Virus record (IMG/VR): IMGVR_UViG_2579778613_000007
Location: 1-7,958 of that record
Length of the DNA: 7,958 nucleotides
Origin: a virus
Taxonomy: Duplodnaviria; Heunggongvirae; Uroviricota; Caudoviricetes
Strand: one strand, 5' to 3'
Part shown: positions 1 to 7,958 of the stretch, in pieces
Position numbering within the stretch: position 1 is the first letter of the stretch
Layout of the letters: every line of letters starts with the position of its first letter
The notes under the pieces: generated by a model
What the model saw: only the letters and a program-made list of their open reading frames with translations
Told to the model about the DNA's origin: nothing
Database searches by the model: none
Position numbers and translations under genes: made by a program

Positions 1-228
1 GAGGGCTTTGCATTCTGCTTCGGTATACGTTTTACCGAGCATAATGTCTTTTCCGGTATGCCCGTAACATACAGTCCATACACCAACGATATCTTTATAT
101 GGTATGTAGCTGACGCCTTCCAGACCATCGTTACCACTTGGTCCAGTGATTAACACAGATGCTATAGCAATAGCCCCGCCACTTATCGCCGCTATTACGC
201 TATTTCGTAGTGCCGGTGACATTGCCAT
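1..228 (-). CDS. R: SAR endolysin (T4-lysozyme-type muramidase), phage 21 R-like; partial, 3' end lies beyond the window start
   Basis: ORF runs off position 1. ATG at 228-226 with GAGG 9 nt upstream (second ATG at 222-220). Translation [76 protein letters not shown]: Gly/Ala-rich signal-anchor-release segment followed by catalytic spacing E-x8-D-x5-T. Start overlaps the holin 3' end, as is usual in lambdoid lysis cassettes. Confidence 0.9.
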
Positions 229-403
229 TCAATCTGTCCTCGCGCTCTTTGCGCTTGTAGTACCAGTTGATGCCAAATGTGCCGACAGTACAAAGAATAC
301 CAATGATGACAGCCCAGTCATTCAGGGAGAGAATGCCACCCATCGCAGTCAGTCCTCCGAAGCTGTAACTGAACCATTCTCTGATTTTGTCCATACGGTA
401 CAT
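200..403 (-). CDS. Class II holin (pinholin-like, two predicted TM segments) with dual-start motif
   Basis: 67-aa [70 protein letters not shown]. Two hydrophobic segments, the first Gly/Ser-rich, and a charged C-terminus. Lies immediately upstream of and overlapping a SAR endolysin. Met1-Tyr-Arg-Met4 resembles holin/antiholin dual starts. SD GAAGGGG 6 nt upstream of Met1. Confidence 0.8.
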
Positions 404-409
404 GCTCTA

Positions 410-425
410 CCCCTTCATTGAGGGG
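410..425 (-). promoter_or_regulatory. Stem-loop sequestering the holin Shine-Dalgarno sequence (possible translational start-selection element)
   Basis: On the mRNA sense strand CCCCT-caatga-AGGGG forms a 5 bp stem whose 3' arm is the SD for holin Met1. Lambda carries an analogous hairpin (CCCCttattGGGGG, from memory) just upstream of S. Confidence 0.35.
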
Positions 426-530
426 ATTTGCTCTATTTAATTAGGAATAAGGTCGATTACTGATAGAACAAATCCAGGCTACTGTGTTTAGTAATCAGAT
501 TTGTTCGTGACCGATATGCACGGGCAAAAC

Positions 531-560
531 GGCAGGAGGTTGTTAGCGCGACCTCCTGCC
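531..560 (-). other. GC-rich perfect hairpin (10 bp stem, 10 nt loop) between tR' and the holin gene; possible attenuator or RNA processing element
   Basis: GGCAGGAGGT-tgttagcgcg-ACCTCCTGCC; on the minus strand it is followed by GTTTTG. I recall a near-identical hairpin at the same place in lambda. Confidence 0.3.
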
Positions 561-855
561 ACCCGCTTTCACGAAGATCATGTGTAGAAGGCAGCAGCGT
601 AACTATCACTGATGAATTCAGGATAGCCAGTGGCTACGGCTCAGTTTGGGTTGTGGCGGCCGGAATCGAACCGGCTTCCATCGGTGCGCTGCCGATTGCA
701 GTACGCGCGGCGGTCAGCTACATGACTAGTATTTTCACTGTCGCCTATCTGCTAGCTCGCCATTGAGCTTCACCACAACGATAAGAGCACTGCGCGGCAC
801 CTTTCACCAATTCCGCGAGGTCTGCGGGTTCAATGCTCTTACCTGTTGCACAGAT

Positions 856-913
856 ATAAAAAATCCCGAAACCGTTATGCAGGCTCTAACTATTACCTGC
901 GAACTGTTTCGGG
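856..913 (-). terminator. tR'-like rho-independent terminator of the late leader transcript
   Basis: Minus-strand stem CCCGAAAC...GTTTCGGG (865-913) containing an inner GCAGG...CCTGC hairpin, followed by ATTTTTTAT. Position is about 194 nt downstream of the inferred pR' start, as in lambda. Confidence 0.7.
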
Positions 914-1050
914 ATTGCATTTTGCAGACCTCTCAGCCTGCGATGGTTGGAGTTCCAGACGATACGTCGAAGTGACCAACTAGGCGGAATCGGTAGTAAG
1001 CGCCGCCTCTTTTTATCTCACTACCACAACGAGCGAATTAACCCATCGTT
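857..1050 (-). ncRNA. Lambda 6S-like late leader RNA (pR' start to tR')
   Basis: Interval between the inferred pR' +1 (plus coordinate 1050) and the tR' U-tract is 194 nt. The sequence is near-identical to what I recall of the lambda pR'-tR' region. No convincing ORF on this strand. Confidence 0.5.
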
Positions 1051-1085
1051 GGGTCAAATTTACCCAACTTTATTCAAAAAGTCAA
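1050..1085 (-). promoter_or_regulatory. Late promoter pR' with overlapping qut (Q-utilisation) region
   Basis: Minus-strand sequence TTGACT - 17 nt - TAAATT - TGACCC - AACGATGGG. The -35 and -10 hexamers have 17 nt spacing, and the -10-like AACGAT at +1..+6 matches the sigma-dependent pause element of lambda pR'. Located 43 nt downstream of the Q stop codon. Confidence 0.7.
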
Positions 1086-1127
1086 TATCATGCCGTTAAT
1101 ATGTTGCCATCCGTGGCAATCATGCTG

Positions 1128-1751
1128 CTAACGTGTGACCGCATTCAAAATGTTGTCTGCGATTGACTCTTCTTTGTGGCATTGCACCACCAGAGCGTCA
1201 TACAGCGGCTTAACAGTGCGTGACCAGGTGGGTTGGGTAAGATTTGGGATTAGCATCGTCACAGCGCGATATGCGGCGCTTGCTGGCATCCTTGAATAGC
1301 CGACACCTTTGCATCTTCCGCACTCTTTCTCAACAACTCTCCCCCACAGCTCTGTTTTGGCAATATCAACCGCACGGCCTGTACCGTGACAATCTCTGCA
1401 TCTTGCGCCCGGCGTCGCGGCACTACGGCAATAATCCGCATAAGCGAATGTTGCGAGCACTTGCAGTACCTTTGCCTTAGTATTTCCTTCAAGCTTTGCC
1501 ACACCACGGTATTTCCCCGATACCTTGTGTGCAAATTGCATCAGATAGTTGATAGCCTTTTGTTTGTCGTTCTGGCTGAGTTCATGCTTACCGCAGAATG
1601 CAGCCATTCCGAATCCGGCTTGTGATTGCGCCATCCCCATAGCAGCCATCACATCAGTACCGGAAAGAGAGTCAGAAGCCGTAGCCCGTGGTGAGTCGCT
1701 CATCATCGGGCTTTTTGGCGAATGAAATTTAGCTACGCTTTCGAGTCTCAT
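1128..1751 (-). CDS. Q: Late-gene antiterminator Q (lambda Q type, zinc-binding)
   Basis: 207-aa ORF MRLESVAKFHSPKSPMMSDSPRATASD...CRDCHGTGRAVD...CGRCKGVGYS...NAVTR with a Cys4 zinc motif; matches lambda Q as I recall it. Followed by pR'/qut. Start overlaps the ninH stop (ATGA). Confidence 0.95.
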   Translation of the reverse strand: MRLESVAKFHSPKSPMMSDSPRATASDSLSGTDVMAAMGMAQSQAGFGMAAFCGKHELSQNDKQKAINYLMQFAHKVSGKYRGVAKLEGNTKAKVLQVLATFAYADYCRSAATPGARCRDCHGTGRAVDIAKTELWGRVVEKECGRCKGVGYSRMPASAAYRAVTMLIPNLTQPTWSRTVKPLYDALVVQCHKEESIADNILNAVTR

Positions 1752-1936: not shown

Positions 1937-2295
1937 GCGTTCTCCAGTTCGGTGATTTTTATTCCAAGCCTTCCGCCTGGTGCTTTCACACCACGAATTA
2001 CGCGAATGTCATCGAATTGCTCGTCGTCTTCCGCAAATCCGGCGTGGATAAGTGAGTCGAGTAAACCTTTCAGGATGTTATCGAGGTCGCGGCGGCGGGA
2101 GTCTGGAACGTCTGCGATTACTTTGATGCGGAGTCGTGATTTGGTGAAAATGTCTAACTTGAGTTGGCGGATGATTTTCTGAACGTCTTTTCGGTATTTC
2201 TGGCCTTTATCGCTGATGTGGTATTGGCTTCCCCGTCTTCGCCAGTAGGTATTCACCGACGGCGGGTATGGAAGCACAAACTGATATTCGTTCAT
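1933..2295 (-). CDS. rusA: RusA-family Holliday junction resolvase
   Basis: 120-aa ORF MNEYQFVLPYPPSVNTYWRRRG...DVPDSRRRDLDNILKGLLDSL...GGRLGIKITELENA with the RusA catalytic acidic motif (RRRDLDN). Strong SD GGAGGG 8 nt upstream of the ATG at 2295. Confidence 0.9.
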   Translation of the reverse strand: MNEYQFVLPYPPSVNTYWRRRGSQYHISDKGQKYRKDVQKIIRQLKLDIFTKSRLRIKVIADVPDSRRRDLDNILKGLLDSLIHAGFAEDDEQFDDIRVIRGVKAPGGRLGIKITELENA

Positions 2296-2708
2296 GGCTT
2301 AATCTTTCCCTCCTTCAGCAGTATCGCCTGGCTGAATACGACAAAGAGTGCGCGGGATTGCCACATCGAGTATCAGCAAGGAGAGAATATCAATCATCGG
2401 AACGCGGCAGAGAACGGTGTAACGCAGCCAAAAAGCGGTTCATTCAGAGCAACCCATGGAAAAGAAAAGCCCACATCATCGTGGGTAATTTTTTGCGCGA
2501 CGGTAAGCTAATCCGACCACCACAATGTGAGTGCTGCGGATCAGAATGTAAACCACAGGCGCACCACTGCGACTACAGCAAACCAACCGATGTGATGTGG
2601 CTCTGCAAGTCATGTCATGTCGAGTGGCACAAACATAACAAACCTATCTACCCAGAAGAGGAACCAGTAACTCTCCCCTTCCCTCGTCACGCTATTCACG
2701 CAATTTAA
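2268..2708 (+). CDS. HNH-like (His-Me finger) nuclease; start codon uncertain
   Basis: C-terminal motif CECCGSECKPQAHHCDYSKPTDVMWLCKSCHVEWHKH fits the HNH pattern CxxCG...HH...WLCxxCHxxxH. The stop TAA overlaps the SD of the next gene. The ATG at 2268 has no good SD and overlaps the rusA start on the opposite strand by 28 nt; the true start may be internal (for example TTG at 2358). Confidence 0.55.
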   Translation: MEAQTDIRSWLNLSLLQQYRLAEYDKECAGLPHRVSARREYQSSERGRERCNAAKKRFIQSNPWKRKAHIIVGNFLRDGKLIRPPQCECCGSECKPQAHHCDYSKPTDVMWLCKSCHVEWHKHNKPIYPEEEPVTLPFPRHAIHAI

Positions 2709-6358: not shown

Positions 6359-6559
6359 ATGCAACACGAACTACAACCTGATTCACTGGTTGATTTGAAA
6401 TTCATCATGGCCGATACTGGCTTCGGTAAAACCTTCATCTACGACCGGATTAAGTCCGGCGACCTGCCAAAAGCCAAAGTTATCCACGGACGAGCAAGAT
6501 GGTTATATCGTGACCATTGTGAGTTCAAAAATAAGCTCTTAAGTCGCGCCAATGGGTAA
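6359..6559 (+). CDS. AlpA/Xis-family excisionase-like DNA-binding protein
   Basis: 66-aa ORF MQHELQPDSLVDLKFIMADTGFGKTFIYDRIKSGDLPKAKVIHGRARWLYRDHCEF... Shows the AlpA-type winged-helix pattern (I..TG.GKT.IY..I..G..P...VI.GRA.W). GGAG 9 nt upstream of the ATG. Confidence 0.8.
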   Translation: MQHELQPDSLVDLKFIMADTGFGKTFIYDRIKSGDLPKAKVIHGRARWLYRDHCEFKNKLLSRANG

Positions 6560-6609
6560 AATAGCGGGTAAAATATTTTTCACATATAAAAAATACCATT
6601 CCAATCAAT

Positions 6610-6641
6610 CCCCTGCCGCTTCAAGTAGATGTCTGCAGGGG
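6610..6641. repeat. Inverted repeat CCCCTGC - 18 nt - GCAGGGG in the ORF-free tract
   Basis: Perfect 7 bp inverted repeat, preceded by an AT-rich stretch (6572-6598). Function unknown. Confidence 0.3.
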
Positions 6642-7035
6642 ACACCAGATACCCTTCAAACGAAATCTACCTTCACCCCGTAAAAGATGGGTTTGGCAGC
6701 ACACTTGCCTTATATCTACTCATTTTTACTGCAACAGGTTGAAATCTCAGCACTGTCAGAAAGCGCTGATGACTAAACAGCCCTGGGCCGGGCGATGTAA
6801 CCATCACACAGAATCCTGATAGCGAAATATGGCGTGACTCGATACTTCACTCCGCAATGCATTCCTTGATGAATTCGCAGGACCGTGATACACGGGACAG
6901 GTCACTGAATGACGACAATGTCCTGGAAATCAGCGAACCGCGCATCTGAAGTACATTTGAGCGACTGTACCAGAACATGAATGAGGCGTTTGGATTAGGC
7001 GATTATTAGCAGGGCTAAGCATTTTACTATTATTA

Positions 7036-7079
7036 TTTTCCGGTTGAGGGATATAGAGCTATCGACAACAACCGGAAAA
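7036..7079. repeat. Inverted repeat TTTTCCGGTTG - 22 nt - CAACCGGAAAA immediately 3' of the permease gene; possible bidirectional terminator or boundary hairpin
   Basis: Perfect 11 bp inverted repeat 10 nt downstream of the permease stop (7089-7091 on the minus strand). A/T tracts lie inside the stem rather than after it, so it is not a classical intrinsic terminator. Confidence 0.35.
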
Positions 7080-7088
7080 AGTTTACGT

Positions 7089-7958
7089 CTATATTGCTGA
7101 AGGTACAGGCGTTTCCATAACTATTTGCTCGCGTTTTTTACTCAAGAAGAAAATGCCAAATAGCAACATCAGGCAGACAATACCCGAAATTGCGAAGAAA
7201 ACTGTCTGGTAGCCTGCGTGGTCAAAGAGTATCCCAGTCGGCGTTGAAAGCAGCACAATCCCAAGCGAACTGGCAATTTGAAAACCAATCAGAAAGATCG
7301 TCGACGACAGGCGCTTATCAAAATTTGCCACGCTGTATTTGAAGACGGATATGACACAAAGTGGAACCTCAATAGCATGTAACAGCTTCACTAATGAAAT
7401 AATCCAGGGGTTAACGAACAGCGCGCAGGAAAGGATACGCAACGCCATAATCACAACACCGATAAGTAATGCATTTTTTGGCCCTACCCGATTCACAAAG
7501 AAAGGAATAATCGCCATGCATAGCGCTTCGAGTACCACCTGGAATGAGTTGAGATAACCATACAGGCGCGTTCCTACATCGTGTGATTCGAATAAACCTG
7601 CATAAAAGACAGGAAAAAGTTGTTGATCAAAAATGTTATAGAAAGACCACGTCCCCACAATAAATATGACGAAAACCCAGAAGTTTCGATCCTTGAAAAC
7701 TGCGATAAAATCCTCTTTTTTTACCCCTCCCGCATCCGCCGCTACGCACTGGTGATCCTTATCTTTAAAACACATGTTGATCATCATAAATACAGCGCCA
7801 AATAGCGAGACCAACCAGAAGTTGATATGGGGACTGATACTAAAAAATATGCCGGCAAAGAACGCGCCAATAGCATAGCCAAAAGATCCCCAGGCGCGCG
7901 CTGTTCCATATTCGAAATGAAAATTTCGCGCCATTTTTTCGGTGAAGCTGTCAAGCAA
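7089..7958 (-). CDS. LacY-family oligosaccharide:H+ symporter (MFS), possibly a CscB-like sucrose permease; partial, 5' end beyond the window end
   Basis: The 289-aa C-terminal portion aligns by eye with LacY: EKMARNFHFEYGTARAWG vs EKVSRRSNFEFGRARMFG, DQQLFPVFY vs DQQFANFF, PKNALLIGVVIMALRI vs GKNALLLAGTIMSVRI, LHAIEVP vs LHMFEVP (LacY H322/E325 region). Multiple hydrophobic TM segments. AT-rich codon usage unlike the phage part. Confidence 0.9.
   Translation of the reverse strand: MLDSFTEKMARNFHFEYGTARAWGSFGYAIGAFFAGIFFSISPHINFWLVSLFGAVFMMINMCFKDKDHQCVAADAGGVKKEDFIAVFKDRNFWVFVIFIVGTWSFYNIFDQQLFPVFYAGLFESHDVGTRLYGYLNSFQVVLEALCMAIIPFFVNRVGPKNALLIGVVIMALRILSCALFVNPWIISLVKLLHAIEVPLCVISVFKYSVANFDKRLSSTIFLIGFQIASSLGIVLLSTPTGILFDHAGYQTVFFAISGIVCLMLLFGIFFLSKKREQIVMETPVPSAI

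Follow-up and report, generated by a model that had tools for sequence, protein, structure and literature searches.

On the minus strand of the analysed window (the whole 7,958-nt stretch of the IMG/VR record IMGVR_UViG_2579778613_000007), positions 1751-1 carry a lambda-type Q antiterminator gene, the late promoter pR', a pause element and a leader ending at an intrinsic terminator, followed by a variable segment with a tRNA-like relic, a conserved non-coding block, a holin gene and the 5' part of an endolysin gene (Table 1). Positions are given below in the direction of transcription, that is, in descending order.

Table 1. Features of the late region, with positions in the window and the basis of each assignment.
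Feature	Positions	Strand	Basis
Q antiterminator gene, lambda type, 207 aa	1128..1751	-	Identity to lambda Q; Pfam PF03589
Late promoter pR' (-35 TTGACT, 1085-1080; 17-bp spacer; -10 TAAATT, 1062-1057)	1057..1085	-	Consensus scan
Transcription start (+1 = 1050) and sigma70-dependent pause element (AACGAT, then GGG)	1042..1050	-	Identical to lambda
194-nt leader, equivalent of lambda 6S RNA	857..1050	-	Colinear with lambda
Intrinsic terminator tR' (stem 916-906 / 872-862, U run 863-858)	858..916	-	Predicted hairpin, identical to lambda
Short conserved block CAACAGGTAAGAGCATTGA just past the terminator	830..848	-	Common to lambda and Q21-type prophages
Variable middle segment, non-lambda, in the tRNA slot of lambdoid late operons	656..829	-	No lambda alignment
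Degenerate tRNA-like relic	648..777	-	Sub-threshold Rfam match, cloverleaf-like minimum-energy fold, register with tRNA-Thr
Conserved non-coding block upstream of the holin	404..655	-	95.6% identical to lambda 44936-45181
10-bp GC-rich terminator-like hairpin, then GUUUUG, inside the conserved block	531..560	-	Predicted fold; identical in lambda
Hairpin CCCCU-CAAUGA-AGGGG directly 5' of both holin starts, straddling the lambda breakpoint	410..425	-	Predicted fold
Class II holin gene, 67 aa, dual start	200..403	-	Pfam PF16080
5' part of the R21-like SAR endolysin gene (start 228 or 222)	1..228	-	R21/RrrD match

All 207 residues of the Q protein agreed with lambda Q (PDB 7UBM chain Q), and its score of 193 bits on PF03589 (cutoff 26.7) places it in the lambda family of Q proteins. 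The ten nucleotide differences from the lambda gene are all synonymous third-position changes, and lambda (NC_001416, 43886-44807) aligned to window positions 1761-830 at 98.0% nucleotide identity. pR' directly follows Q, with a putative Q binding region in the spacer between the -35 and -10 elements. This spacer differs from that of lambda at two of 17 positions, 1078 (-28) and 1068 (-18); both variants, as well as a T-to-C change at -2 (1052), were also found in Emek and four E. coli prophages, where the three are the common allele. AACGAT at +1 to +6, together with GGG and the pause at +16, has the roles described previously (PMC4005639), and by analogy the pause in the window is expected at +16, position 1035. 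The leader differs from its lambda counterpart by three substitutions in all, two inside it (1014 and 935) and the one at -2; its length of 194 nt follows from the U run of tR', which puts the leader end at 857. The leader fold energy was -67.5 kcal/mol (z = -3.6), and the predicted tR' hairpin (-26.9 kcal/mol, z = -6.2) is followed by UUUUUU. Thus, the Q protein, -35, -10, start, AACGAT-GGG, leader and terminator are all colinear with the lambda late control unit. The initial annotation had described Q, the promoter with its pause element, the leader and tR' as essentially lambda-like with scattered substitutions and as joined to a lysis cassette other than that of lambda, and the comparison with the lambda reference agrees on each of these points. 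The window nevertheless differs from lambda in carrying ninH/rusA instead of ninI upstream of Q, in the change of the orf-64 ATG to ATA, in the segment downstream of 830 and in the replacement of lambda S and R.

Lambda homology was broken at 830, at 655 and at 421-408. Since the 175 bp between 830 and 655 found no match when aligned against lambda, the region 1-1127 contains three lambda breakpoints and not one. The single homology switch proposed in the initial annotation therefore describes the last of them, about 20 nt before the holin, and misses the internal replacement in the tRNA slot. The last switch itself was placed correctly: identity to lambda is unbroken as far as 421, 18 nt short of the holin ATG at 403, and continues as weaker similarity to 408. 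Just upstream of the replaced segment, the CAACAGGTAAGAGCATTGA block is likewise present in two prophages of the Q21 type, those of E. coli 55989 and W4, which become homologous to the window at 848 and 866. The segment 829-656 was intact in these two genomes, in E. coli CFSAN064035 and in a 39-kb IMG/VR contig (L013). At the same position, tRNA-Asn and tRNA-Thr were found in 22 of 103 related loci, and both a tRNA slot and non-homologous holin and lysin types have already been described in P22-like phages (PMC8022706, PMC2629481).

The tRNA-like relic in this slot retains an acceptor stem (TGTGGTG, 777-771 / CGCCACA, 658-652), a D arm and a canonical T arm (675-659), but ends in CCC instead of CCA and has an aberrant, long anticodon region. 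No tRNA was found in the window by ARAGORN at default settings; at relaxed thresholds, the relic was called only with a 38-nt insert. An Rfam tmRNA/tRNA-like match at 706-648 reached 20 bits against a cutoff of 47, and Rfam scans of the variable middle segments of the window and six related loci gave no family, this tmRNA-like match being the only, sub-threshold, hit. Positions 777-648 thus lack a recognised cloverleaf, a normal anticodon arm and a CCA end. An intact intron-containing tRNA was considered here and rejected on the 38-nt insert, the aberrant anticodon arm and the CCC end. At its 3' end, the relic keeps register with the tRNA-Thr 3' ends of phage 21 and E. coli 755. Across at least four sequence types, the tRNA-like elements of this slot have wholly different interiors and keep a terminal helix of 7-9 bp, in which one pair is fully compensatory (C-G in lambda, G-C in the window) and another shows a U-A/U-G change; their 3' end keeps register with the CCA of the phage 21 tRNA-Thr at this spot. 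It is conceivable, although we consider it unlikely, that such degenerate elements (window 777-648; lambda ca. 44860-44947) still act as RNA signals instead of being dead relics, for example as a processing site for RNase P or RNase E or as a 5' structure that stabilises the long late mRNA.

The conserved non-coding block 655-404 was found in lambda, HK022, CUS-3 and Emek, among others, and what it adjoins varies by phage: the holin at one end is not always the same, nor is the Q, leader or tRNA segment at the other. It thus has the character of a lambdoid boundary sequence, conserved and non-coding, with non-homologous alternative modules around it. In CUS-3 (CP000711), the 241 bp homologous to it are annotated as 'bsq3; boundary sequence' and, as in the window, abut the holin start codon and separate unrelated Q and holin modules; unlike in the window, the flanking genes there encode a holin of the lambda family and a Q of a different type, 172 aa long. 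An alternative reading is that the block is kept for a function in the late transcript, as a second terminator-like hairpin and as a hairpin controlling translation of the holin, and not as a recombination target, so that joints at its ends reflect selection after random illegitimate exchange; the debate between homologous and illegitimate exchange models has been summarised elsewhere (PMC3233612). The strong conserved hairpin at 560-531 (-28.2 kcal/mol, z = -3.8), followed by a U-rich stretch, speaks for such a function. So does the presence of a hairpin right before the dual starts in both lambda and the window, with a different loop and 3' arm (CCCCUU-AUUG-GGGGG in lambda); an opposite-strand scan also reported an inverted repeat at 425-410. 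A literature search on tandem late terminators of lambda found nothing, and we do not equate the hairpin at 560-531 with a named second terminator. However, the block is itself mosaic, phage 21 having only 673-586 and Emek and other P22-like phages only 576-404. Exchanges therefore also occurred inside the block, as expected if its homology promotes recombination. We regard a purely functional explanation as possible but the less probable one; it is compatible with repeated exchange of modules around the block, and both can hold.

The holin gene begins with MYRM, its two in-frame start codons (Met1, 403-401; Met4, 394-392) being separated by the basic residue Arg3, with the hairpin 425-410 just upstream. 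This arrangement suggests a dual-start holin/antiholin, in line with the earlier description of a small dual-start holin other than lambda S. The protein scored 75 bits on PF16080 (HP1 holin family) but only 19.5 bits on the S21 family PF04971, below the cutoff of 26, so that it falls outside the S21 family; no alignment was found between the holin DNA and phage 21 or S21. Emek, phiKp_30 and E. coli prophages encode this holin with 100% identity (68/68 against Emek, counting the stop codon). The endolysin gene overlaps the 3' end of the holin gene and is cut by the window edge, which leaves its first 76 codons inside and no spanin genes in view. Within these codons, the predicted protein matched residues 1-74 of R21 (PDB 3HDE; ca. 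88% identity) and RrrD (4ZPU) with E = 3e-40, as well as Pfam Phage_lysozyme. Its residues 3-76 correspond to R21 residues 1-74, including the Gly/Ala-rich N-terminal segment and LEG...KD...WT, and the combination of an N-terminal SAR domain with E-D-T catalytic residues points to an R21-like enzyme, as had been proposed.

Phage 21, for which the complete genome OL657228 was used after locating it by tblastn of S21, has the same late gene order as the window: Q21, tRNA-Asn, tRNA-Thr, the S21 pinholin and the R21 SAR endolysin. The holins of both are dual-start class II proteins beginning M-x-x-M-D-K-I. In contrast, the Q families are different and structurally unrelated (PMC9388147), the holins belong to different Pfam families, and in phage 21 the place of the relic is taken by intact tRNA genes. 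Phage 21 was homologous to the window DNA only at 673-586, which aligned with the tRNA-Thr 3' end and the next 62 nt, and at 223-1, where the endolysin showed 88.8% nucleotide identity (97.9% to Emek). There was thus no colinearity across holin and endolysin, and a second breakpoint in the phage 21 alignment lies exactly at the endolysin start codon. Alignment with lambda and phage 21 therefore places the expected breakpoint at 421-408, yet adds further ones and leaves phage 21 homology in the cassette from 223 only.

The phage-21-type cassette of the initial annotation does not survive as a unit, because the holin is of the HP1 family and has no phage 21 DNA homology; only the endolysin is 21-like. 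Judged by its sequence, the cassette is of the PS119/ST104/Emek/BTP1 type, combining an HP1-family class II holin with an R21-like SAR endolysin. The Salmonella P22-like phages PS119, PS34, ST104, Emek and BTP1, in which gene 13 encodes a class II holin and gene 19 a SAR endolysin, share 576 bp with the window at 94-98% identity (Emek: 97.9%, one ungapped piece). These 576 bp cover part of the conserved block, the holin and the 5' part of the endolysin, and include a 141-nt junction that is 100% identical; at least 80% of this type of block was covered in 39 phage records. In these phages, by contrast, pR' is followed by a short leader of the P22 type, and homology to the window is lost from 1028 to 576, a stretch taken up in the window by the long leader of lambda type, tR' and the tRNA-like relic.

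The sequence across the junction recurred in 39 phage records, at least five of which (PS119 and ST104 included) matched it at 100%; 82 of 5,426 complete E. coli genomes and no fewer than 100 IMG/VR contigs also carried it, so that the search for other prophages sharing the junction returned many. Of 74 IMG/VR contigs in which the junction is identical, 42 had a Q-lambda-family gene and 31 a Q21-family gene. Exact-pattern scans of species-representative genomes for the full arrangement and for a junction 44-mer gave no hits, a result that says little because each species is represented there by one genome. The junction is old and common. The initial annotation had read it as a precise module exchange at a conserved boundary, informative for lambdoid mosaicism; the boundary is indeed conserved, as bsq3 of CUS-3 illustrates, but a junction this common is not an informative new exchange. 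A specific exchange between lambda and phage 21, ca. 20 nt before the holin, would fit the end of lambda identity at 421-408 and the R21-like endolysin. It is refuted for the holin, phage 21 homology in the cassette beginning only at the endolysin start codon, and the junction is already widespread in phage records, E. coli genomes and viral contigs. Furthermore, for each part of the region the closest relatives come from P22-like phages and E. coli prophages and not from lambda or phage 21. We therefore consider such an event very improbable.

These observations are best accommodated by a region built from exchangeable units, and window positions 1-1751 (minus strand) very probably contain the late control unit and the first lysis genes of a remnant P22-like/lambdoid prophage assembled in this way. 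Five units may be distinguished: A (ninH, lambda-type Q, pR', pause element, 194-nt leader and tR'), B (the variable tRNA slot, here with the degenerate tRNA-like relic), C (the conserved non-coding block of ca. 250 bp), D1 (the HP1-family dual-start class II holin) and D2 (the R21-like SAR endolysin), all of which would be exchanged freely within the enterobacterial phage pool. With D denoting both lysis genes, A+B+C was joined to lambda S in E. coli CFSAN064035, in E. coli 55989 and W4, B+C+D followed an antiterminator of the Q21 type, 17 E. coli genomes combined A+C+D with different variants of B, part of C with D was present in Emek, ST104, PS119 and BTP1, and A+B+C+D occurred together in contig L013. 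The joint between lambda and another holin lies at the end of C, where exchanges appear to end repeatedly, through either homologous recombination within C or selection for intact units.

The exact combination of positions 1-1800 was absent among the 5,426 complete E. coli genomes, and mosaic prophage regions are often misassembled, which might suggest that two prophages of the source genome were fused into a chimera during assembly. However, contig L013, which is independent, was colinear with window positions 2330-1 at 98.1% identity and without gaps, and every pairwise junction was also present in complete genomes. A chimera was rejected on the colinear contig, and we give it almost no weight. 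To the extent of this colinearity, the region does belong to a single existing phage type; the breakpoints relative to lambda remain.

At ca. 2326-2330, homology to L013 meets homology to an intact prophage that occupies the same locus, and therefore the prophage of the window, as far as its sequence tells, is defective, having lost the immunity and replication region. Because this region is missing, the late unit is probably silent in this genome. The prophage remnant adjoins the csc sucrose locus.

From the near-identity to studied systems, we infer how the late switch and lysis would operate. RNA polymerase starting from pR' would pause at +16 as sigma70 rebinds AACGAT, and Q bound in the promoter spacer would load onto the paused complex by the mechanism described for Q (PMC9388147), allowing read-through of tR' and of the hairpin in C into the holin and endolysin genes. 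The holin mRNA would yield a longer antiholin from Met1, with the extra Arg, and a shorter holin from Met4, in a ratio presumably set by the upstream hairpin. The endolysin would be exported with an uncleaved signal-anchor-release domain and freed once the holin depolarises the membrane. Although the prophage is defective, its intact lambda-type pR' and lysis start could still be switched on in trans by a lambda-type Q, such as that of a superinfecting phage.

The mosaic nature of this late region is real and already known; because the same module combination recurs in many other phages, the region is a textbook example rather than something new. A modular picture with a shared cassette and a common joint has been available for two decades, in publications as well as in database annotations. 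The region neatly illustrates modular exchange in lambdoid phages, with one lysis cassette used behind two unrelated antiterminator families and one non-coding block serving as a common joint, and it carries little weight beyond correct annotation. In this respect, a whole lysis cassette should not be called 'phage-21-like' on the basis of its endolysin alone.

The late region reads on the minus strand, from high to low numbers, and its upstream part closely follows lambda (see table below). The Q protein was identical to lambda Q (PDB 7UBM chain Q) at 207/207 residues. All 10 DNA differences between the two genes (window 1128–1751) were synonymous third-position changes, a sign that Q is under strong purifying selection. 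Alignment to lambda (NC_001416) covered window 1761–830 at 98.0% identity and window 655–408 at 95.6%, with no alignment over 830–655. The initial annotation of Q, the promoter, the pause element, the 194-nt leader and tR' as lambda-like was thus correct. Lambda pR' has the same pause element and trailing GGG, with AACGAT at +1 to +6 and the pause at +16 (PMC4005639). Between the Q stop and 830 (298 nt), seven substitutions separated the window from lambda, three of them in or near pR', at −28 (1078), −18 (1068) and −2 (1052). The window bases at these three positions also occur in the Salmonella phage Emek and in four E. coli prophages, so lambda is the odd one out, carrying the rarer allele. 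A substitution at 1014 (minus strand) changes the ATG of lambda orf-64 (1014–1016) to ATA in an otherwise conserved leader, which speaks against orf-64 being a maintained gene.

Features of the late region and the adjacent rusA gene
Feature	Position	Strand	Remarks
rusA	2295–1933		
ninH	1936–1748	minus	
Q	1751–1128	minus	
pR' −35	1085–1080	minus	TTGACT
pR' −10	1062–1057	minus	TAAATT
Transcription start	1050	minus	
Pause element	1050–1045	minus	AACGAT, then GGG
Leader	end at 857	minus	194 nt; ends after hairpin and U run
tR'	hairpin 916–862; U run 863–858	minus	fold −26.9 kcal/mol, z = −6.2
Non-coding DNA	between leader/terminator and holin	minus	about 450 nt
Holin	403–200	minus	67 aa
Endolysin	start 228 or 222	minus	cut by window edge

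The initial annotation described a lambda-like stretch with a single switch and missed the middle segment, 830–655, which is not lambda. This segment occupies the tRNA slot of lambdoid late operons. The slot is bounded by the short conserved anchors CAACAGGTAAGAGCATTGA (848–830) and AACTGAGCCGTAGCCAC (from 646), and its contents differ among related loci. Intact tRNA-Asn and tRNA-Thr genes occupied the slot at 22 of the 103 loci sharing the holin junction, as in phage 21. In the window, the slot holds a 130-nt tRNA-like element (777–648, minus strand) with an acceptor stem (TGTGGTG/CGCCACA), a D arm resembling that of tRNA-Thr, an over-long, aberrant anticodon region, a canonical and perfect T arm (GCCGG-TTCGATT-CCGGC), and a 3' end with discriminator A and CCC instead of CCA. 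An intact tRNA at this position was ruled out: ARAGORN called none there under default settings and, under relaxed thresholds, only one carrying a 38-nt insert, while Rfam returned only a sub-threshold tmRNA-like match. The other slot variants had no Rfam family match.

The 3' end of the element lines up exactly with tRNA-Thr in phage 21 and in E. coli 755. We treat the element as a relic. The corresponding lambda segment (1786–1875 of the lambda locus L001, about 44858–44947 of lambda; compare window 779–650) is a shorter, more decayed, non-coding version that keeps the terminal helix, GUUGUGCUG/CAGCACAAC. Its closing stem is 7 bp (TGTGCTG/CAGCACA), from which the window differs by a fully compensatory pair, C-G to G-C. 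In other phages, the same closing helix recurs around at least four different interiors, with CCA or CCCA at the end. It is possible, though unlikely, that the closing helix of the slot elements has been kept for a function.

The upstream anchor also bears on Q exchange. Q21-type promoters with ATTGAGCA/AATGAGCA repeats were found in the E. coli W4 locus (L011, about 2430–2520) and the phage 21 locus (L009, 1841–1925), and CAACAGGTAAGAGCATTGA directly follows these promoters' own terminator, the same block as at lambda tR'. The CAACAGGTAAGAGCATTGA block is thus a second common joint, for swapping Q modules.

At the downstream end, uninterrupted identity to lambda stopped at 421, 18 nt upstream of the holin ATG (403–401), so that the homology switch placed earlier at about 20 nt upstream was accurate; similarity was patchy from 421 down to 408. 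The identity breaks off within a small hairpin at 425–410 (CCCCU-CAAUGA-AGGGG), at the place where lambda has CCCCUU-AUUG-GGGGG, and in both the hairpin lies directly 5' of two in-frame start codons. The CUS-3 record already labels the conserved block before the holin, 241 bp directly adjoining the holin start, 'bsq3; boundary sequence'. Two rival views are summarised in PMC3233612: exchange at conserved boundary sequences, and random exchange with selection. Six Salmonella P22-like phages carry three types of holin and three of lysin, the types being non-homologous for the holins (PMC2629481). The conserved block also contains a perfect 10-bp, GC-rich hairpin (531–560, minus strand; −28.2 kcal/mol) followed by GUUUUG, which is identical in lambda and resembles a second terminator in the late leader.

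The lysis genes had been described as a phage-21-type cassette, which held for the endolysin but not for the holin. The complete phage 21 genome (OL657228) showed DNA homology to the window in two places only: window 223–1, from the endolysin start codon on (88.8%), and an 88-nt piece, window 673–586, comprising the tRNA-Thr 3' end and the sequence after it. The first 76 endolysin codons had about 88% identity to residues 1–74 of R21 and DLP12 RrrD, in an alignment that takes in the N-terminal stretch rich in Gly and Ala as well as the catalytic residues E, D and T. In contrast, the holin DNA did not align to this phage 21 genome, and its product belongs to Pfam PF16080 (HP1 holin family; 75 bits), with a score for the S21 family PF04971 of 19.5 bits, under the cutoff of 26. 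As first described, it is a small holin other than lambda S; its N-terminus, MYRM (Met1, Arg3, Met4), is the usual dual-start arrangement. The protein was 100% identical to holins of Emek, Klebsiella phage phiKp_30 and several E. coli prophages. Window 576–1 (576 bp) matched Emek at 97.9% in one ungapped piece and was at least 80% covered in 39 phage records. As a unit, the cassette is of the type found in PS119, PS34, ST104, Emek, BTP1 and others.

The same junction is widespread. A 141-nt query (window 480–340), counted at ≥ 80% coverage, was found in 82 of 5,426 complete E. coli genomes and 39 phage records, with 100% identity in PS119, ST104, Emek and others, and an exact 44-mer across the junction occurred in at least 100 IMG/VR contigs. 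Among the 44-mer matches listed, 74 contigs had at least 1.5 kb upstream, and their Q partners were of the Q-lambda family in 42 (35 at ≥ 95% protein identity) and of the Q21 family in 31; the Q-to-holin distance in contigs among these matches ranged from about 400 to 1,760 nt. Other combinations were also present: window 1800–408 (98.6%) is joined to lambda S in E. coli CFSAN064035, a Q21-type Q and promoter are joined to window 848/866–1 in E. coli 55989 and W4, and 17 E. coli genomes carry a lambda-type pR'–tR' and the window's lysis cassette with other slot contents. Neither the complete E. coli genomes nor the isolated phages searched contained the full window combination; a 39-kb IMG/VR contig (L013) was colinear with window 2330–1 (98.1%, gap-free). 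The initial reading of a precise module exchange at a conserved boundary rested on a real and mostly accurate observation and was right in part; the exchange is ordinary, already documented lambdoid mosaicism.

The late module lies within a defective prophage, which is without immunity, replication and most nin genes. Homology to L013 ends at 2330, and an intact prophage residing at the same site in the chromosome begins to match at 2326, just past its ssb. Since these homologies meet at about 2326–2330, rusA abuts oppositely oriented early-left genes (by Pfam, 3'-5' exonuclease, anti-RecBCD, Ead/Ea22 and DUF551), and this site appears to be an internal deletion joint; E. coli PI6 carries a similar deletion derivative. 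A 146-aa ORF (2268–2708, plus strand) with paired Cys/His motifs (CxxC ... HH ... CxxCH) spans the joint; it had no Pfam match, and the matching stretch in E. coli WP7-S17-ESBL-01 carries no annotation. The sucrose permease gene of the csc locus forms the right end of the window. At the prophage end (window 6359–7958), a small ORF stands where homologous loci have torI (excisionase-like) annotated, directly followed by the 3' part of the permease gene (minus strand); no integrase gene separates the two.

By the general loading mechanism of Q-lambda (PMC9388147), Q bound to the promoter spacer would engage the polymerase paused at +16. The modified polymerase would then pass tR' and the strong hairpin at 560–531 into the holin and endolysin genes; the dual starts would give antiholin and holin, and holin triggering would free the SAR endolysin from the membrane. 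The late unit stands here without its normal upstream early promoter, and it is probably silent in this genome unless a lambda-type Q comes in trans.
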